Source of the DNA: a virus
Taxonomy: Duplodnaviria > Heunggongvirae > Uroviricota > Caudoviricetes
Length of the DNA: 12,588 nucleotides
Strand: one strand, 5' to 3'
Virus record (IMG/VR): IMGVR_UViG_2548876944_000014
This document shows, piece by piece, positions 745 to 9,736 of this stretch. The notes beneath the pieces were generated by a model that was not told the DNA's origin, did not search any database, and worked only from the letters and a program-made list of their open reading frames with translations. The translations under genes and the position numbers were made by a program. The stretch's first letter is position 1. Each line of letters starts with the position of its first letter.

Positions 745-2658
745 TCATGCTCCACTCGATTTCAGTAATCCGCGATAATCGAGGGCCGCGACACCTGCAT
801 CTATGCGCACTTTCCAGGCGACACCATCAACAGTAAAGCCCACCTGCTCCTCAAGATATGGCGTATCCATACCATCAAGATAAGCGACTTCTATTGTGTC
901 CATCCCCTTAGCTGCGGCTACATACCATTCCTTGCTATTGGCCTTATCAAGACGTGGCTCAACAATTACTTCTGCCATATCTTTCACCACGTTAATGATG
1001 CCGGGGTTCTGATTGATAGTGCTCTCATCACCAACCGGAAAGACTGATGACGATGACAAAATGGCGCGACGCGCGGCAGATTCCAGCGCGGCAGGGACCA
1101 GAACAAAAGCAGGGGTAATATTCAGGGAGTCGCCGTTAGCATCCTCCTGGAGGCGCATCCGCTTACGGGCTTCATCAAGCCCCACCATGTCCATATCCTT
1201 CGCAATAAGATTTTTATGATCGGCATGGAATAACGCTTTACCATCCGTAAACTTGCCGTTGCTGGTTAACAGGAGATAAACCAGATTGCCAACTGTTCTG
1301 GCGGCTGCGCGTCCCATCGCCATGGGGATTGTAGTTAACTGGGTCAGGTCATCGTTGATAATGGCCTGACGGGTAACGGAAAAAATATTCCCGTACGTGG
1401 CCAGCGCAATAGGTACACCTTTATCGCTGGTGGTGATGTATTTATATTCCGCACCTTCCGGTACTTTATCCAGCTTTGAAAAACCATTCAGACCAACGCG
1501 CTTTGCTTCATGAAAGTTTGAAAGCGAACCGGTACGCGTCCATTTCTGGAACGTTTCGCCGCTGTCCTGCCAGCCTTTCAGTACAGATTTTTCAGCCCCA
1601 CCAGCCAGAATATGAGAAAAATCACTGCTGCTGTGTGTAAAAGCCGCATTAACAACCTGCGAGCGATTAATAAAACCGCTCACAGTGATACCACGATCAA
1701 CCAGTGATGCCTGGGCCATTTCAAAAAGGCTCATCATCGCGTAAGGGTTGCCTCGTTCAGGGCGTTCATACCCAAGACGGGAATAAAGCCCCTGACGAAT
1801 TGCATCACCTGTTATGTTTCCGTTTCCGGCATAGATATGAGGCGGGGTATTTTTATTGGATGGCGTGGACTCGCGCCCCAGCTCGTTCAACAGCTTTTCA
1901 CGGGCCATTTCCGGTGTACATGATGCATCTTCCAGACACGCCATTTTGATCCCGTCGTAACGACTGCCGAACAGGCTAAACACTTCACTTATTCCATTGA
2001 TGCGCTTCTGTTCATTACCAGCAATATTTGCCGCTCCCTGTGGCGGTGTAATCATTCCTTTAATGGTTTCCGGCATATGTAAAAAATCTCCTGTGCGTTT
2101 CGATTCAATTCGCGCCATTGCTCTGACGGATGGCAACAATTCATCAGCAAAACCGTGCTTAAGGCATTCTTTCCCATCCATCCAGGTTTCATCCTCCAGC
2201 ATGGCGGTAATTTCCTGTGCTGATTTGCCCGTTTTTCTGGCATAAGCAGGGATTAACACGGTTTCCACCTTATCCAGCAAATCAGCATAATCACGCATAT
2301 CGCCAGCATTTCCGCCAGAGATCCCCCACGGTTTATGGATCATCATCATGGCGTTCTCCGGCATCACTACACGATCGCCAGCCATTGCGACCACCGAAGC
2401 CATTGAAGCCGCAACACCATCGATATAAACCGTAATGTCTGCCGGATGATTCCGTAGCAGGTTATAGATGGCGATGCCTTCAAACACATCACCACCTGGT
2501 GAATGGATCCTCAGATTGATATGTGAAACATCGCCAAGGGCTTTCAGGTCTTCCGCGAACTGCTTTGCAGTAACACCGAAGCCGCCAATCTCCTCATAGA
2601 TAGATATATCCGCCGCTCCACGAACATCCGCCGCCTTAATGGTGTACCAGCGATTCAT
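745..2658 (-). CDS. Prohead protease (ClpP-like, peptidase S14) fused to HK97-fold major capsid protein, 637 aa
   Basis: N-terminal ~180 aa has ClpP-like signatures (HSPGGDV, GVAASMASVVAMAGD, MIHKPWG). The C-terminal ~450 aa has the length and C-terminal pattern of HK97-family major capsid proteins. ATG start at 2658..2656 overlaps the TAA of the upstream small ORF (TAATG). Confidence 0.8.
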   Translation of the reverse strand: MNRWYTIKAADVRGAADISIYEEIGGFGVTAKQFAEDLKALGDVSHINLRIHSPGGDVFEGIAIYNLLRNHPADITVYIDGVAASMASVVAMAGDRVVMPENAMMMIHKPWGISGGNAGDMRDYADLLDKVETVLIPAYARKTGKSAQEITAMLEDETWMDGKECLKHGFADELLPSVRAMARIESKRTGDFLHMPETIKGMITPPQGAANIAGNEQKRINGISEVFSLFGSRYDGIKMACLEDASCTPEMAREKLLNELGRESTPSNKNTPPHIYAGNGNITGDAIRQGLYSRLGYERPERGNPYAMMSLFEMAQASLVDRGITVSGFINRSQVVNAAFTHSSSDFSHILAGGAEKSVLKGWQDSGETFQKWTRTGSLSNFHEAKRVGLNGFSKLDKVPEGAEYKYITTSDKGVPIALATYGNIFSVTRQAIINDDLTQLTTIPMAMGRAAARTVGNLVYLLLTSNGKFTDGKALFHADHKNLIAKDMDMVGLDEARKRMRLQEDANGDSLNITPAFVLVPAALESAARRAILSSSSVFPVGDESTINQNPGIINVVKDMAEVIVEPRLDKANSKEWYVAAAKGMDTIEVAYLDGMDTPYLEEQVGFTVDGVAWKVRIDAGVAALDYRGLLKSSGA

Positions 2659-3176: not shown

Positions 3177-3261
3177 ATGAAAATGCAAAAACCAGCCTTT
3201 TTCCGCGCCGCTCCCGCCCCGTGGCAGACCACTCCACCGGGAGGACCCGTAAAAAAGGCGG
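3177..3261. repeat. 85-bp GC-rich structured element, copy B
   Basis: 84/85 identity with 642..726. Lies between the iteron origin and the terminator at 2967..2989. Flanking sequence diverges immediately on both sides. Confidence 0.9.
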
Positions 3262-3402
3262 ATTGCTCCGGCTTCTGTTACTCGTTGCTTAAAACGGTAT
3301 GTTATCCCCGTACGGATCATCATTCCCCGCCTGTTGTTTTGGTGTGCTTCGCTGTCATAGGCTTTATCTCACAGCAGTAAATTAAAATTTTTGCGTTTTA
3401 AC

Positions 3403-3631
3403 CCTTCACCTGTTCACCTTTTGATATTTTCTCTTTTAATTCATAATGTTAAGGGGTGAACAGTTTCACAAAAACTATTCACCAACTGTTCACCACTGTT
3501 CACCCTTGAAGCTCAATAAACAATCAAAAAGGTGAACAGTGAATAGTTTGGTGAACAGTTCATAAATAACTGTTCACCCTATAATATACTGATATAAAAG
3601 ATATTTATGACAGGGTGAACAGTGGTGAACA
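3403..3631. repeat. Replication origin iteron array: nine perfect TGTTCACC / GGTGAACA octamers plus degenerate copies (P4 ori/crr type I iteron type)
   Basis: Perfect octamers at 3411, 3487, 3497, 3571 (forward) and 3455, 3531, 3550, 3614, 3624 (reverse), with AT-rich spacers (e.g. 3580..3610). Immediately downstream of the P4-alpha-like replicase gene. TGTTCACC is the type I iteron bound by P4 alpha protein, recalled from the literature. Confidence 0.75.
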
Positions 3632-3645
3632 GTTATTCCATAAGT

Positions 3646-5463
3646 TTAATTTTTGCTATCGTCATTAGTGACCGATACACATGATGGCATCCAGTCTTCT
3701 GATTCCTCCGTCAGTGTCACGTTTGAACGCAAACCGTGCTTCGTTTTCCGTTTCATATACTCCCTGCCATATTCCGCCATTGCCCCCGGCATATCTTTAC
3801 CGAAGCGCGTCAGTGTTACAGGTTTACCAAACCCATGTGCCCTCATATAAGCCAGATAGGCATGATAGAGATACCTGCGTGGGCTGAATGGCACAATTTC
3901 AGCATTACCCACTAACAGGCCATCACACATTACCGACGCCATGAGATAGCCGCAGAAGTCCACCAGCGAATCCCCCTCTCGCTTTATCGCCAGTGCTTCT
4001 TCAGATTTCTGCTGCTCATATAACAGGCGTCTGGCTTCGTCCTGGTCAGCAAACCGTGTAAGCAGATGGCGAATCACTACCGCCAGCTCACCTTCTATTT
4101 TTTCCGCCAGCATTGGATCGCGTTCGTTCTCCGGTACAACTTCCGAAAAATTGAATATCACCCGACGACGTGAGATCCCCCCGCTGCGGTCACTGAATGA
4201 CATGGCGTTATTGTTAACCGCCAGCACTACTGCCGGAATACGCGTTGAGTAGGGGGCTTTGTGTTTCGGGTCAATTGCCACCTTGTCACCGCCTGTAATG
4301 GCCTTAATCCCTGCCCCATCACCAGCGTAGCGGGTCATATCCGGCATGATAATCAGCGAAAAGCCAACCACTAACGCGCGTTCCCTTGCATCTTCCAGCG
4401 CCTTCATGCTTGCCGATACTGTGTTGGCCTTACCCGCCAGCATGGTGCAAATCTCCGCCATCACGCTTTTACCACTTCCCCCTGGACCTGTTACCTCAAT
4501 GAATAACTGCCAGTCGTACCGGTTCGCCAGCACCATGAATAAGGCAGCCAGTACGCGATCCGCCTTGCGGTCATTCTCAGCCACCGAACGGCGTAACCAC
4601 TTCCAGAAATTCGGCGCATGTGTTGCCAGCGTTTCCCCCTCTGCTGGTGGGCTGAAAGGTAATTCACTGGCAATTAACAACCAGTCGTTTTTGTTATGCT
4701 CCCGAAAATTACCTGTTCTGGTATCAAATACCCCGTTACTGAATCCAATCAGGTTACGGGCTGTATTCCCCATTACAGGCAAACTTAACTTCATGGTATC
4801 GACCGCCGATTTAATGGCGTTCTGCGAATAGCTGATCTCCGCATCAATGAAAATCTGCGCCATAGCACGCTGTAACTCTTTATCCTGAACCGGCTCCCAT
4901 ACAATGCCGTTGTAATGGTGAACAGTGTCAGAGTCGGCATGAATCGCCAGTTCACCGCCATAATGTGCCAGGAGAACTTCGCCGCGTTGACTTGCTCCCA
5001 TCTGGTTAAGCGCCAGTGATGAAGCGTTATCGTCTTTTACCCGCTCTTTTTTCTTTACAGGCAGTTCAACTACCTTTTTCTTTTCCGCCAGCTCTCCCCG
5101 CTCACGTTCCAGATATTCGCGCCAGTTCTCCCGTTTCTGGCTGTGCATTCCTTCAGGATAATAATCAGCATCCCTGACACCTGCCGCTGCCAGTTTCTGC
5201 CCGATGGTATTAACAAGCCCCGGACGCAATAACCCCGCCTGGTAGAGACGCACGCGATAGCGTCCGTCCGGTACGATTTGCAGGTTGTCCAGTTCGGCAA
5301 GTTGTTGCTCTCCAAGCCAGACAGGTGGCACGTTATCGCCAGCCAGTCGCCCGTCCTGTTCCTGCCACTGCTTCGCATGTGCCCACGCATCACTACCCGC
5401 AAAAATGATGACTTCCGTCATTTTGTCACGCGGCTGGTGTTTTAAATTTGGCGCTTTTTTCAT
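3646..5463 (-). CDS. Replication initiator, P4 alpha-like: D5_N domain plus SF3 helicase (Walker A GPGGSGKS) plus C-terminal putative iteron-binding domain, 605 aa
   Basis: Walker A GPGGSGKS, Walker B-like LIIMPD, and a D5_N-like segment (IGFSNGVFDTRTGNF). ATG at 5463 has GGAGAGAG upstream and forms an ATGA overlap with the stop of the upstream ORF; the ORF-track start at 5478 is GTG. Iterons lie directly downstream. Confidence 0.85.
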   Translation of the reverse strand: MKKAPNLKHQPRDKMTEVIIFAGSDAWAHAKQWQEQDGRLAGDNVPPVWLGEQQLAELDNLQIVPDGRYRVRLYQAGLLRPGLVNTIGQKLAAAGVRDADYYPEGMHSQKRENWREYLERERGELAEKKKVVELPVKKKERVKDDNASSLALNQMGASQRGEVLLAHYGGELAIHADSDTVHHYNGIVWEPVQDKELQRAMAQIFIDAEISYSQNAIKSAVDTMKLSLPVMGNTARNLIGFSNGVFDTRTGNFREHNKNDWLLIASELPFSPPAEGETLATHAPNFWKWLRRSVAENDRKADRVLAALFMVLANRYDWQLFIEVTGPGGSGKSVMAEICTMLAGKANTVSASMKALEDARERALVVGFSLIIMPDMTRYAGDGAGIKAITGGDKVAIDPKHKAPYSTRIPAVVLAVNNNAMSFSDRSGGISRRRVIFNFSEVVPENERDPMLAEKIEGELAVVIRHLLTRFADQDEARRLLYEQQKSEEALAIKREGDSLVDFCGYLMASVMCDGLLVGNAEIVPFSPRRYLYHAYLAYMRAHGFGKPVTLTRFGKDMPGAMAEYGREYMKRKTKHGLRSNVTLTEESEDWMPSCVSVTNDDSKN

Positions 5464-5759
5464 TTCTGCTCTCTCCACGCGGCAATCATGTTTTTCAGTT
5501 CCTGTAGTTTTTTATCCACATCCACACGTGACACATGGTTATTTCTGGAAGTCGGGATTTCCCGCCGGAATCTGCAAATAAAGATCTCCACGTTCAGCGA
5601 ACTAAGAAATGAATATCCATCACGGATAAAATAAACACGGTCAAACATCAGTTCTTTTACCGTTACTCTGTTACCGTTCTTATCCAGATAAATAGCGCCG
5701 GGGATAATTTTGTGGTGTGCATAACCGCTGGCAGTCAAGCCAGATAAATATGTTCTCAT
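5460..5759 (-). CDS. Hypothetical protein (99 aa), translationally coupled to replicase
   Basis: ATG start with GGGGA upstream; stop overlaps the replicase start (ATGA). No recognisable motif. Confidence 0.5.
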   Translation of the reverse strand: MRTYLSGLTASGYAHHKIIPGAIYLDKNGNRVTVKELMFDRVYFIRDGYSFLSSLNVEIFICRFRREIPTSRNNHVSRVDVDKKLQELKNMIAAWREQK

Positions 5760-5765
5760 GATTAT

Positions 5766-6086
5766 TTATCCCCGATTTGAATCAGTATTCGCTTTCTTTA
5801 TGGCATTTAATGCATCTGTGGCATTTTCAATGGTGCACCGTAACGAAATATCAAACCGCCCAAGCATTGCCAGTAACAAACCGATATTACCCATATCAAT
5901 GCGCATGGCCTTTTCGTCATAGTCCTCATTTTCTGACGCATGCCACATCAGGCTACCAATTGACGCAATACCCATTGATATATTGTCAGTAGCCCCATCC
6001 GCAGCGGAATAAACCTTTTTAGCAATATCATGCTCACAGTTAAAATGCGGATTAATCAGGTACTGGTAATTTGACATATCAGGCAT
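5766..6086 (-). CDS. Hypothetical acidic protein (106 aa)
   Basis: ATG at 6086..6084 overlaps the stop of the upstream 67-codon ORF by 8 nt. Same strand and operon as the replicase. No recognisable motif. Confidence 0.5.
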   Translation of the reverse strand: MPDMSNYQYLINPHFNCEHDIAKKVYSAADGATDNISMGIASIGSLMWHASENEDYDEKAMRIDMGNIGLLLAMLGRFDISLRCTIENATDALNAIKKANTDSNRG

Positions 6087-6282
6087 GGCACACCCCCTGA
6101 CGAATACGGGCGGCGAATACCATCACGCAGCCAGCCGGAGATTGCTGGCGTGCTTCCTGTTCGCTGGTGGCCTCAATGGTAATCACGCGCGGTTGTGCCG
6201 TGCTCAGGGCGATAAAACGCCAGGCGAATTTATTCAGGTCGTGCGAGTCCCGCCCTTGCGGGTGTGTGGTATGATTTCTCAT
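6079..6282 (-). CDS. Hypothetical small protein (67 aa), first gene of the replication operon
   Basis: This is the C-terminal part of the implausible 306-aa ORF-track entry. The internal ATG at 6282..6280 is preceded by GAGGT at about 7 nt (MRNH...). Overlaps the next gene. Sits just downstream of the palindromic operator region. Confidence 0.4.
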   Translation of the reverse strand: MRNHTTHPQGRDSHDLNKFAWRFIALSTAQPRVITIEATSEQEARQQSPAGCVMVFAARIRQGVCHA

Positions 6283-6378
6283 AGCTACCTCGATACGCTT
6301 TCTATCGTTGGTGGTTAGAAGCCCGGTTAGTGTTAGCGCACTGCCGGGTTTCGTCGTTTCTGCACCTTGCATCAACAA

Positions 6379-6431
6379 GGTGTTAAACACCAATTTAAGC
6401 CTAGGTGTTAAACACGTCAAGTGTTGAACAC
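6379..6431. promoter_or_regulatory. Three palindromic operator-like sites: GGTGTTAAACACC, GGTGTTAAACACG, GTGTTGAACAC
   Basis: Inverted repeats GTGTT/AACAC at 6379..6391, 6404..6416 and 6421..6431, in the roughly 200-bp divergent region between the minus-strand replication operon (start 6282) and the plus-strand RHH gene (start 6482). Confidence 0.5.
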
Positions 6432-6481
6432 TTATTTTTTTTCCTGCATACTGCATTTGTTTTTTGTAAGGGGTACACAAC

Positions 6482-6661
6482 ATGGCGACAAAAGCAGTAA
6501 ACGCAAAATCACAAACAGTTGCGGCAAGGGTTCCGCATGAAGTTATGAACAATGTTGAGGCGGTAAAAATGCCTGGTGAAAGTACAGGGCAGTTTGTAAC
6601 AGCAGCATTAAAGCGAGAAGTTGAATACCGCCAGCGTCGCAAGGCCAAAGAGCAGGAGTAA
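6482..6661 (+). CDS. Ribbon-helix-helix (Arc/CopG-like) DNA-binding protein, 59 aa; candidate repressor
   Basis: Not in the ORF track (below its 60-aa cut-off). ATG preceded by TAAGGGG. Sequence MATKAVNAKSQTVAARVPHEVMNNVEAVKMPGESTGQFVTAALKREVEYRQRRKAKEQE shows beta-strand (VAARVPHEV), helix, Gly turn, helix as in RHH folds. Followed by a second small ORF and a plus-strand terminator. Confidence 0.5.
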   Translation: MATKAVNAKSQTVAARVPHEVMNNVEAVKMPGESTGQFVTAALKREVEYRQRRKAKEQE

Positions 6662-6718
6662 CCATCACCAGCGCCGTGGTGCGGTGAACTATGGCGCACA
6701 GGGTTACAGGTATCTACG

Positions 6719-6898
6719 ATGACTGACAAATCATTAAAGAAATTATCCTCATCCAAGAAAAAACAACGCAAAAATGCGGTAAACGAACATGAACCGGAGA
6801 GATTCGCACCATGTGCGTTTATCCTTGAGAAGTACCTTAAAGAGTATTCTAGGAAAATACGCTCATTGCAGGCATGGCAGCGAATCGAGCCAGACTGA
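6719..6898 (+). CDS. Hypothetical basic small protein (59 aa)
   Basis: Open frame between the RHH gene and the plus-strand terminator. Weak ribosome-binding site; no motif. Supported mainly by the operon context. Confidence 0.25.
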   Translation: MTDKSLKKLSSSKKKQRKNAVNEHEPERFAPCAFILEKYLKEYSRKIRSLQAWQRIEPD

Positions 6899-6962
6899 TA
6901 ACATTGCCCACCAGCCAACAACCTGGTATTCTGGATATGCTCAAGTTTAGTGTTATGCCACT

Positions 6963-6990
6963 GGCGACCGCCCTTGGTCGCCTTTGTTTT
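6963..6990 (+). terminator. Rho-independent terminator for the plus-strand RHH unit
   Basis: GGCGACC-GCCCTT-GGTCGCC (perfect 7-bp stem) followed by TTTGTTTT on the plus strand. Lies between the convergent small-ORF unit and the alpA stop. Confidence 0.6.
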
Positions 6991-7007
6991 ATGTGTCATA
7001 GCCCCCC

Positions 7008-7232
7008 CTACGCTGCCTTACCTGAATTAACGCGGTCACGGCTTTGCACCCAGTCCATAACTTCGGAAAGCAACCAGCCTACAGAACGCCCCCCAAGATT
7101 ACGGCGAGACGGAAAGCCCCCTTTCTTCTCCAGTTCGTAGCGTGTAGTACGGCTGACGCCTGTTAACTTACGACATTCATCCTCACGAATTACGCGATCT
7201 GTTAGTGATTGAAATTGTGTATTTTGATTCAT
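7008..7232 (-). CDS. alpA: AlpA-family (phage Xis/AlpA-type HTH) transcriptional regulator, 74 aa
   Basis: Small HTH protein with the AlpA-like C-terminus (RSVGWLLSEVMDWVQSR). ATG with GAGGGTG Shine-Dalgarno and its own AT-rich upstream region. Typical position next to int in P4-like and PICI elements. Confidence 0.8.
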   Translation of the reverse strand: MNQNTQFQSLTDRVIREDECRKLTGVSRTTRYELEKKGGFPSRRNLGGRSVGWLLSEVMDWVQSRDRVNSGKAA

Positions 7233-7335: not shown

Positions 7336-8190
7336 TTAATTTTCATTAGATAACATTTTTCTTATTTTTTCTAAAGAATCGCTGCGCATTATTTTTTCTA
7401 AGAAGGGTTTTACAGTCTGAGCAATAGCAAAGGTGTCCTTTTCACCATCAGGATACAAAGATACGGCAAGCACCCCTAATGAAATTTTTCTATCTGTAGA
7501 CAACTCCCAAGATAATAAGTCAATTAATGGGATTATCTTATAATCAATAATTTTACGTCGTATGCTCTCCCAACTTCCTGCAATTGGTTTGTCTGGCTCA
7601 ACAATTGAAAGTTCACTACGCCATTTTGGTAATAGTTTTGTAAACGCTTCAATCAACTCATCATCTCTGTTATGTAGTAAGTCAACAGAAACAAGCATAT
7701 TATCTAATGTATCAGAAAGGAGATTCACTGGTTCACGCATCACAGCCCAAAACATCCCATTATCTTCTGATATTAAACTTCCAACCATCTCATTATCTAT
7801 GATGATTGGTTTATCCTTCCAATATCCTCTTTCCGCAGTCAGTTTATTAATCATTGATATATCAAACCTTGTTACAGGTTTAATTCCATCATCATAACTT
7901 AGCTCAATTAACTTCGGCTGCACTTTATGGTCATATTCTTTTTGTTTATCACAAAACCAATCGTCTTCTTTCAGCTCTCCAAATGGATCCCCGTAATTAT
8001 TATGCAACGGGTATTCAGCACCAAACATAAAACCATATTCAGGCATCTCAGAATGTTTCATTGTTAAATCATCTTGTCGCCAATATAATTGGCGAAATAG
8101 ATCTTTATCCGACAAGTTTTCTAGGCAATCATATTTGCCTAAATCAAATGACTTTGGTAAATCTTTTTTACTATTTACTTTTTTCGTCAT
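7336..8190 (-). CDS. Hypothetical protein (284 aa), AT-rich cargo gene between int and alpA; function unknown, candidate accessory/defence gene
   Basis: Long clean ORF with visibly lower GC than its neighbours. ATG overlaps the int stop (ATGA), so it is probably co-transcribed with int. Acidic, no transmembrane segment, no Walker or nuclease motif recognised. Confidence 0.6.
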   Translation of the reverse strand: MTKKVNSKKDLPKSFDLGKYDCLENLSDKDLFRQLYWRQDDLTMKHSEMPEYGFMFGAEYPLHNNYGDPFGELKEDDWFCDKQKEYDHKVQPKLIELSYDDGIKPVTRFDISMINKLTAERGYWKDKPIIIDNEMVGSLISEDNGMFWAVMREPVNLLSDTLDNMLVSVDLLHNRDDELIEAFTKLLPKWRSELSIVEPDKPIAGSWESIRRKIIDYKIIPLIDLLSWELSTDRKISLGVLAVSLYPDGEKDTFAIAQTVKPFLEKIMRSDSLEKIRKMLSNEN

Positions 8191-9407
8191 TGTATCCCTC
8201 TCAATATCACAATATTTTCATTATATCCTGCAATCATATCAAGACGCTCAACCCATAGATTCAGTGCGTCCCGTTTCGCCTGCAAATAGCGTGAATGGTT
8301 ATAGGTTTTTTGCTGACCTGGCATCTGATGCGCTGTGATGTGCTCCACGATATGCGGATCGACACCTAAATCATTCAGCATAGTTGTAAACGTGTGTCGG
8401 AAATCATGCAGCGTCCAGTGTTCCTGCTTAAGCCGCTTATGCGCATTTCGTCCATATTGCGCCACCGTGGTATCTTTTTTCAGTTCGCCGAGTAATAACC
8501 CAGTGTGTGCGTTTTGCTCCACCAGCTTCTGAATGAACGGCAAAATGCCATCAGGAATAGGTCGGAATATTGTTACCTTCGTTTTGCTGTGCTCTTTTGG
8601 CACTGTCCACAACATTTCTTTCAGATCCCATTCTTTGATCTCTGAAAGTCTGATCTCTGCCGTTCTACACCCGAACACAATTAACAAGCGCATTAACGCA
8701 CTGTAATAGGGAGCGAACACATCACCATCAATAGCGCGTAGAATTTCTTTTAGTTCGCTGTTGCTGTGCACTCTCTCGCGGATTTCTGCTCTCTTACCCA
8801 CATCAGTAACGATCAAATCGTCCAGGGCGTTGCTAAACGCGTAGCGCCGCCTGCGGCAAAACTTTAGCGCCTGTTTGCATGTCTGCATGACATGGCCCGC
8901 TGCTACTGGTGCTTTTTTTCGTACGCGGTCAAAACATGCGATCCACTGCCTTGTATCACACTTATCAAGGGGAATTGCCCCGATATGGCAAATGATGTGC
9001 TTATCCATACGCTGCACCAGCTTTATGTAATCTTTGCGGTTATCCTTCGCGTATTCCTCCAGCCAGTAGTTAATCGCTTCCTTCACCGTAACGGGTTTTA
9101 GTGCTTCTTGTACTGTGGCGCACAACTCATACCGAGGGTTTTTACCCTCAGCCAGCCATGCCCGGCACTGTGTTCGCTTTTCCCTTGCAGATTTCAGCGA
9201 CAATTCCGGGTAAGCCCCCAGCTTTAACCGCTCTGCGGCAACCTCACGGCCTCCCGTTCGGTACCGGAAATACCAGGTTAATTTGCCTCCCTTTGAGTGT
9301 TTAATCTCCAGCCCGCCCCCGTCGGAGTAAAAACGCTCTTTTTCTGCCTGGACAGCCACCAATTTTTTTAACGTTGAATCGCTCAGTTTGTTTAGTGCTT
9401 TTCCCAC
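8187..9407 (-). CDS. int: Tyrosine recombinase / integrase, P4 family (N-terminal DUF4102 arm-binding domain), 406 aa
   Basis: N-terminal DGGGL...WYFRYR...LGAYPELSLKSAREKR signature of P4-type integrases. Catalytic HDFRHTF box and C-terminal Tyr region. GTG start with AGAGGA Shine-Dalgarno. Lies at the element edge facing the chromosome. Confidence 0.9.
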   Translation of the reverse strand: MGKALNKLSDSTLKKLVAVQAEKERFYSDGGGLEIKHSKGGKLTWYFRYRTGGREVAAERLKLGAYPELSLKSAREKRTQCRAWLAEGKNPRYELCATVQEALKPVTVKEAINYWLEEYAKDNRKDYIKLVQRMDKHIICHIGAIPLDKCDTRQWIACFDRVRKKAPVAAGHVMQTCKQALKFCRRRRYAFSNALDDLIVTDVGKRAEIRERVHSNSELKEILRAIDGDVFAPYYSALMRLLIVFGCRTAEIRLSEIKEWDLKEMLWTVPKEHSKTKVTIFRPIPDGILPFIQKLVEQNAHTGLLLGELKKDTTVAQYGRNAHKRLKQEHWTLHDFRHTFTTMLNDLGVDPHIVEHITAHQMPGQQKTYNHSRYLQAKRDALNLWVERLDMIAGYNENIVILRGIQ

Positions 9408-9442
9408 TATCAGATCCTCTTTTCAGTCCTCCAGCCTCAAAA

Positions 9443-9466: not shown

Positions 9467-9736
9467 ATTTCGCTGAAGCTCGGCAAACAACAACGAACAG
9501 CAACAAACAAGAAAGCCAATTAAATCATTGTATATCAAACACATACACAAACAATCACGAACACCCCCGAACTACAAAAAACACTAAATGAGAAAATACG
9601 GGTATTTCTCAGCCTTCACGCAGAAGGGCACCCCGAGTCGTTTGGTTGCGATGATAAATCGCAGAGGAGGATGGTAATGTCCAGCGCACGCGTTGTAAAC
9701 GAGGAAAAACGGCAGTTTTACAATCGCGTTAATAAA

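Follow-up and report, generated by a model that had tools for sequence, protein, structure and literature searches.

The iteron array at positions 3403..3631 of the window (the whole 12588-base stretch of DNA analysed here) is very probably the origin of vegetative replication in a phage-inducible chromosomal island (PICI) of the EcCI224 type. This reading rests on the position of the array immediately after a replicase gene, on its architecture, on the covariation of its sequence with that of the replicase, and on experiments published for a sibling island, EcCICFT073. A preliminary description of this DNA had already called the array an origin, and these four lines of evidence favor that assignment. 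Features of this kind are already known, ordinary and well understood, and the island that carries this one has been catalogued before. Our additions are modest: an explicit link to the origin module of satellite P4, and the recognition of a cassette formed by the iterons and the wing of the protein that presumably reads them.

The iteron array

An exact search finds ten copies of the octamer TGTTCACC in the window, of which nine are clustered at 3411-3631. Four of the clustered copies are on the plus strand (3411, 3487, 3497 and 3571) and five are on the minus strand (3455, 3531, 3550, 3614 and 3624). When the whole window was subjected to 200 dinucleotide-preserving shuffles, the octamer occurred on average 0.46 times per window and three times at most, and none of the 200 shuffles reached ten. 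The isolated tenth copy, at 4917..4924 on the minus strand and inside the replicase gene, is most likely a chance occurrence, because one stray copy fits the 0.46 expected per window. Three degenerate iterons complete the array, namely CCTTCACC at 3403, TATTCACC at 3476, and TATTCACT at 3538-3545 on the minus strand. The degenerate copy at 3403 abuts the first perfect octamer at 3411, and it is where the preliminary description had placed the start of the feature. At the other end, the edge of the array is 14 nt from the replicase stop codon (3646-3648), which closes an open reading frame occupying 3646..5478 of the minus strand. The nine perfect octamers that had been reported in both orientations directly after the replicase gene are therefore all present.

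The twelve sites form a near-perfect dyad centered at ~3517, in which mirror positions match real sites within 0-2 bp. Each half-array consists, in order, of two tandem iterons, an AT-rich spacer of 35-36 bp, one inverted iteron, 13 bp, and three tandem iterons. The two iteron triplets face each other over a 26-bp center, with six sites on each side of 3505-3530. The gene-distal module (3403..3504, plus strand) comprises the degenerate site at 3403 and the perfect site at 3411, the AT-rich spacer, the inverted site at 3455, 13 bp, and the sites at 3476 (degenerate), 3487 and 3497. The gene-proximal module (3531..3631, minus strand) comprises the sites at 3531, 3538 (degenerate) and 3550, the inverted site at 3571 on the plus strand, the AT-rich spacer, and the sites at 3614 and 3624. 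When the array is folded as single-stranded DNA, a z score of -8.0 is obtained, which is due to the inverted modules.

On the basis of composition, the distal 36-bp spacer (3419..3454, 80.6% AT) and the proximal 35-bp spacer (3579..3613, 80.0% AT) are candidate DNA-unwinding segments. The central 26-bp segment (3505..3530), which lies on the dyad axis between the modules, is 73.1% AT. These values, compared with an AT content of 48.5% for the replicase gene, agree with the earlier remark that the spacers are AT-rich. Conservation was assessed by using ten TGTTCACC-type islands from six genera, in which the spacer lengths are preserved. Iteron columns are 89% identical to the window versus 53% for spacer columns (Mann-Whitney p = 2e-12). 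The distal spacer at 3419-3454 is an example: across genera its length is conserved and its sequence has diverged. Beyond the last iteron, the segment 3380-3402 (AATTAAAATTTTTGCGTTTTAAC, or AAACGCATATTTTTTAATTTTAT in gene orientation) is kept among TGTTCACC-type islands of several genera, and is not conserved in EcCICFT073.

The interval 3350-3700 is devoid of DnaA boxes, IHF consensus sequences and GATC sites. A promoter and terminator scan predicted neither kind of element in the array or between the array and the replicase gene; its sole terminator-like hairpin is at 2989-2973. Neither Rfam, at gathering thresholds, nor a tRNA search produced a match in the window, and a literature search with the bare octamer returned only primer matches.

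Because no terminator is predicted between the replicase gene, pri, and the array, pri transcripts are expected to enter the array. In iteron plasmids, moreover, iterons commonly have control roles. The array might on these grounds be mainly a regulatory or copy-control element that titrates or handcuffs the replicase, or a protein roadblock separating pri from the packaging genes that follow, rather than a place where synthesis starts. However, two 80% AT spacers that are flanked by inverted sites at conserved spacing correspond to the needs of an unwinding site and not to those of an operator. The replication data published for the sibling EcCICFT073 also argue against a mainly regulatory array, which we regard as quite improbable. 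Such a role is nevertheless compatible with origin function, and could exist in addition to it.

The Pri-Rep replicase

The gene next to the putative origin (3646..5463, minus strand) encodes the 605-aa replicase Pri-Rep, which is predicted to act in trans on the array. Its ATG is at 5463, and the mechanically defined reading frame extends to a GTG at 5478. Pfam domains D5_N, DUF5906 and Pox_D5 are recognized in the protein. Residues 150-600 are 50.7% identical to P4 alpha, and the helicase core matches the structure of SaPI5 PriRep5 (PDB 7OLA) with an E value of 2.6e-10. Residues 502-598 match 1KA8, the solved origin-binding domain of P4 alpha (phmmer E 1.8e-24), and this match identifies a probable C-terminal winged-helix origin-binding domain at aa ~495-605 (3649..3981, minus strand). 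Pri-Rep of EcCICFT073 is 49% identical overall; the N-terminal domains are very similar and the C-terminal part is the most diverged.

The N-terminal domain (aa 1-150; 5014..5463, minus strand) is common to the EcCICFT073 protein and is not the primase domain of P4 alpha. In alignment, the zinc ribbon and the EGYATA motif of P4 alpha are absent from Pri-Rep. The preliminary description of an alpha-like replicase is therefore appropriate for the helicase and the C-terminal domain, but does not extend to the primase region. The N-terminal domain has no Pfam match even at E 10 and corresponds to phrog_2850, a PHROGs family of unknown function. An AlphaFold model of the whole protein is poor (pLDDT 41) except at aa 15-128, where an alpha/beta fold is predicted with moderate confidence (pLDDT 57-89). 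Foldseek found no neighbor of the model in the PDB below E 0.3.

A model of the C-terminal domain alone has a pLDDT of 39, which is too low for mapping the wing. Because both structure models are of low confidence, the wing was assigned by alignment only, with the general topology of winged-helix domains as a guide. By this assignment, the segment KRKT-KHG-LRSN, located after the helix that follows the conserved YLYHAYLAY helix, would form the beta-hairpin wing. The predicted hairpin spans aa ~568-582 (YMKRKTKHGLRSNV; 3718..3762, minus strand), and its sequence covaries with that of the iterons.

A DUF4222 gene at 5460-5759 (minus strand) overlaps the start of pri, and a gene of this family has the same position, just upstream of pri, in EcCICFT073. 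The counterpart position in P4 is that of cnr (ORF106, DUF5375). By analogy with cnr, the DUF4222 gene may encode a regulator of the initiator.

The EcCI224-type island

The 401 bp around the array are present in 766 of 5426 complete E. coli genomes (about 14%), with 100% identity in Ecol_224, where the island sits between thiM and rcnR. EcCI224 has been listed as CP018948.1 1961620-1972242, a 10.6-kb island with att core AGAAATACCCGTAT and location frmR-thiM (Fillol-Salom et al. 2018 Table S1, PMC6092414). The window is 97.4-99.7% identical to EcCI224 (about 98%) except for a patch at 6384-6784, and the att core is found at 9596-9609. The patch, which is the only stretch that cannot be aligned to EcCI224, is a mosaic regulatory region. 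It overlaps an open reading frame at 6079-6999 (minus strand) whose 306-aa product ends in an Icd-like or repressor-like domain; the EcCI224 annotation has two genes at this location, one short and Icd-like, the other a divergent YlcI/YnfO gene.

The genes of the island encode an integrase, a DUF6387 protein, an excisionase/regulator-like protein, an Icd-like domain, a DUF4222 protein, Pri-Rep, a fusion of ClpP protease and capsid protein, and a TerS-like DUF1441 protein. This gene content fits a PICI rather than a P4-like satellite. The int gene (8187-9407), the excisionase/regulator-like open reading frame (7008-7232) and pri are all on the minus strand, and the size of 10.6 kb fits the 10-20 kb of PICIs. 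None of the P4 genes sid, psu, delta and epsilon is found among the Pfam, PHROG and RefSeq annotations of the window or of complete islands. Judged by its sequence, the element is a Gram-negative PICI of the EcCI224 type and not a P4-family satellite.

A single gene at 745-2658 (minus strand) encodes a 637-aa fusion of a ClpP-like prohead protease to an HK97-type major capsid protein. Possession of a capsid gene by a satellite is typical of many Gram-negative PICIs. The protease-capsid gene is flanked by a 94-nt direct repeat (642-735 and 3177-3270; 95% identical) that matches the genome ends and cos region of lambdoid phages: positions 1-70 of Tritos and cdtI, and 44319-44392 of the 44510 positions of mEp460. 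On the minus strand the repeat reads CGGGTCCTCCCGG...ACGGGGCGGGAGCGGCGCGG and resembles the cosQ/cosN sequence printed for phi4 of CFT073. The two repeats are probably two cos sites, like the cos1 and cos2 reported for EcCICFT073.

These repeats bear on the possibility that the array is itself a packaging signal, cos or pac, for the terminase of the helper phage, as its location in a non-coding stretch ahead of the capsid module might suggest. Sequences like lambdoid genome ends are instead found elsewhere, in the 94-nt repeats, and EcCICFT073 has two reported cos sites. Moreover, the array covaries with the replicase and not with the packaging genes. We therefore give a packaging function almost no credence, and retain the interpretation of the array as an origin.

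A near-identical island (L001; NZ_CP148328.1, 10790 bp, circular) has been deposited as a "plasmid" of E. coli Z1323HEC0475, and it carries only one iteron cluster. Many replicase homologues are located on contigs of 10.4-11.3 kb. The circular sequence and these contigs fit an excised, replicating circle or the assembly of a multi-copy element, and are suggestive only.

Covariation of iterons and the replicase wing

Relatives of the replicase were collected from one-genome-per-species contigs, yielding 80 loci that span many genera. In 77 of these, one octamer type occurs three or more times within 350 bp after the replicase stop codon. The octamer is TGTTCACC/TATTCACC in 60 loci, TGTCTACC/TATCTACC in six, TCTCCACC in five, TGTCCGCC in three and TGTCCACC/TATCCACC in three. 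Across octamer types the layout of the sites is retained, and can be written 2-AT-1-3 | 3-1-AT-2.

The type of octamer is matched by the state of the wing. All 60 proteins encoded beside TGTTCACC-type arrays lack an insertion in the wing and carry G577, whereas every one of the 17 proteins associated with other iterons has a wing insertion of 1-5 residues and R or N at position 577. Wing state thus tracks iteron type without exception in 77 proteins, although these represent roughly five iteron types and so few independent events. Loci in which wing and iterons change together, spanning five octamer types, are L010, L015, L018, L022-L028, L030, L032-L035 and L086.

The locus from Escherichia ruysiae (L010) suggests how such changes might occur. 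The DNA for its helicase core is 85-98% identical to the window, but from gene nucleotide ~1680 (aa ~560) identity falls to about 40-55% and remains low through the array. Loci that keep TGTTCACC have 65-78% identity over the region past nucleotide ~1680 where L010 collapses. This pattern points to a recombination breakpoint near aa 560 in L010, and suggests that wing and iterons were exchanged as one cassette.

Among more distant relatives, the replicase of Serratia phage Scapp is 38% identical, and at the position of the array this phage has a repeat of unrelated sequence, TTGCACTTTT, which occurs in both orientations. No obvious array is apparent between pri and int of Pasteurella phage Pmp7, whose replicase is 34% identical. 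Xenorhabdus and Photorhabdus loci (L036-L083) encode full-length alpha-like proteins of ~800-846 aa with an N-terminal extension. Directly 3' of the replicase gene, within the short flanks covered here, they carry a two-module inverted TGTTCACC/TATTCACC array.

The preliminary description had proposed the octamer as a convenient marker for this element family. This proposal is not sustained, because sibling PICIs use TGTCTACC, TCTCCACC, TGTCCGCC and TGTCCACC while P4, which belongs to a different family, has TGTTCACC. As far as these sequence comparisons go, the octamer marks a specificity group of replicases and not a family of elements.

Proposed mechanism and implications

If the array is the origin, replication presumably begins when a helper phage induces the island and Pri-Rep is produced from the unidirectional operon. 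Through its C-terminal winged helix, the protein would bind the TGTTCACC iterons, and with twelve sites in two inverted modules many protomers could be recruited on both sides of AT-rich segments. The DNA would then melt, perhaps at one of the 80% AT spacers or at the center. The SF3 helicase domain would load itself, probably as two oppositely oriented hexamers, an arrangement that the dyad suggests, after which host polymerase would copy the excised circle. Because no terminator separates pri from the array, read-through transcription might help initiation. The lack of a recognizable primase domain of the alpha type in Pri-Rep weakens the scheme at the priming step.

The analysis fixes the annotation of the 229-bp non-coding cluster as the likely island origin and of the gene preceding it as the likely initiator. 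It would also define a minimal replicon for a PICI carried by about 14% of complete E. coli genomes, although the practical gain is small. The natural pairs of wings and iterons (TGTTCACC, TGTCTACC, TCTCCACC, TGTCCGCC and TGTCCACC) could give mutually orthogonal replicons for PICI-based delivery vectors.

Comparison with known origins

PICIs have been described as having their origin directly after the initiator gene, on its 3' side, where iterons lie on either side of AT-rich DNA (Fillol-Salom et al. 2018, ISME J, PMC6092414). The window likewise has, 3' of the initiator, two sets of iterons that flank AT-rich DNA. A pri-ori fragment of EcCICFT073 maintains a temperature-sensitive plasmid at the restrictive temperature, and the corresponding delta-pri construct does not; with delta-ori, colonies were "significantly reduced" and not abolished (PMC6092414), a result that counts against the origin reading. 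Like the window, EcCICFT073 has its origin immediately 3' of pri-rep, encodes int, pri and a regulator resembling AlpA on the same strand, and contains a capsid gene together with cos sites. The array that follows pri in EcCICFT073 also forms the 2-AT-1-3 | 3-1-AT-2 dyad, composed of TGTCTACC/TATCTACC in place of the TGTTCACC found in the window.

The origins of SaPIs, which are PICIs of Gram-positive bacteria, consist of six to twelve iterons directly after rep, with an AT-rich middle and opposite iteron directions on each side (PMC9371898). The C-terminal winged helix of SaPI Rep reads the iterons; the origin is bound and melted, and the helicase loads itself (PMC9371898). SaPI iterons are 5-6 nt long and unrelated in sequence, whereas those of the window are octamers, and the relatedness of the SaPI protein to Pri-Rep is distant and confined to the helicase core. 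The two systems therefore have a common design logic and do not belong to one family.

The closest resemblance outside the PICIs is to P4. As the preliminary description had stated, the octamer is the type I iteron of P4 ori and crr: in the RefSeq record NC_001609, octamers of the TGTTCACC type carry the label "ori type 1 repeat" in both regions. P4 ori (9310-9413) contains six perfect copies of TGTTCACC, and crr (4291-4590), directly downstream of alpha, contains ten copies, five of which are perfect. We take these repeats to be bound by alpha, as implied by the GenBank annotation and the 1KA8 entry. Alpha and Pri-Rep share the SF3 helicase and the C-terminal winged-helix origin-binding domain (50.7% identity; match to 1KA8). 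They differ in that alpha has a zinc ribbon and an EGYATA/TOPRIM primase region, both of which Pri-Rep lacks. The wing reads KRKT-KHG in the window and KRHT-KQG in P4.

The resemblance extends to the layout of the sites. In the P4 ori core, the sites have offsets of 0, 10, 21, 43, 86 and 96. Those of the distal module, read in reverse, are 0, 10, 21, 42, 86 and 94, and those of the proximal module, which has the same orientation as the P4 ori core, are 0, 7, 19, 40, 83 and 93. The number, orientation and spacing of sites in the P4 ori core are thus those of each module in the window, within 0-3 bp. In addition, the distal AT spacer is identical to P4 crr spacers at 27-28 of 36 positions (P ≤ 0.0005). 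Spacer sequences have no significant similarity to P4 ori spacers (P about 0.12-0.14). From the shared offsets and the crr-like spacer we conclude that P4 ori, the P4 crr units and both modules in the window are variants of one module. An assignment of the proximal half as "ori" and the distal half as "crr" was considered and dropped, because the ori-core layout is present in each half, and sequence resemblance to crr is limited to the distal AT spacer.

The arrangement of modules differs. P4 has one ori module and, 4.5 kb away, two directly repeated crr units, and both ori and crr are required in cis. In the window, two modules are contiguous and inverted. A terminator lies between alpha and crr in P4, and none is predicted between the Pri-Rep gene and the array. 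P4 ori has type 2 repeats next to its core, whereas a search of the whole window for their decamer pattern gave no match. The earlier label of a P4-type origin is thus apt for the octamer and the ori-core layout, but not for the element, which is an EcCI224-type PICI with a single cluster and no type 2 repeats.

The cluster that directly follows alpha in P4 is crr, and not ori. This position, together with the crr-like distal spacer, raises the possibility that the array is equivalent to crr only: an accessory site that binds the replicase and, in cis, stimulates initiation at another origin of the island. However, the window and the complete circular sibling of 10.79 kb each contain just one TGTTCACC cluster, even with one mismatch allowed, and both modules have the P4 ori-core layout. 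Moreover, the corresponding pri-ori fragment of EcCICFT073 sustains a plasmid by itself. A purely auxiliary function for the array is accordingly judged very unlikely, and we favor an origin in which the cluster after the replicase gene combines two ori-like modules.

The inverted arrays of the Xenorhabdus and Photorhabdus loci suggest that the split ori and crr of P4 may be the exception. Because an identical iteron and a conserved wing occur in this PICI and in P4, which belong to different satellite families with different helpers, their initiators may recognize each other's origins, a speculation that in our view has less chance of being right than wrong. A resident P4-like element could then replicate or titrate the PICI origin, and the reverse, and the wing-iteron cassette could have diversified to escape such cross-talk. 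In the same tentative scheme, the contiguous inverted pair of modules would be the general form of alpha-type origins, and the split ori/crr of P4 a derived, looped version. The comparison with P4 also softens two statements in the PICI literature, namely that the origin has an organization unique among replicons and that Pri-Rep does not resemble P4 alpha, because this module recurs in the P4 ori core and the helicase and binding domains of alpha fall within the diversity of Pri-Rep proteins.
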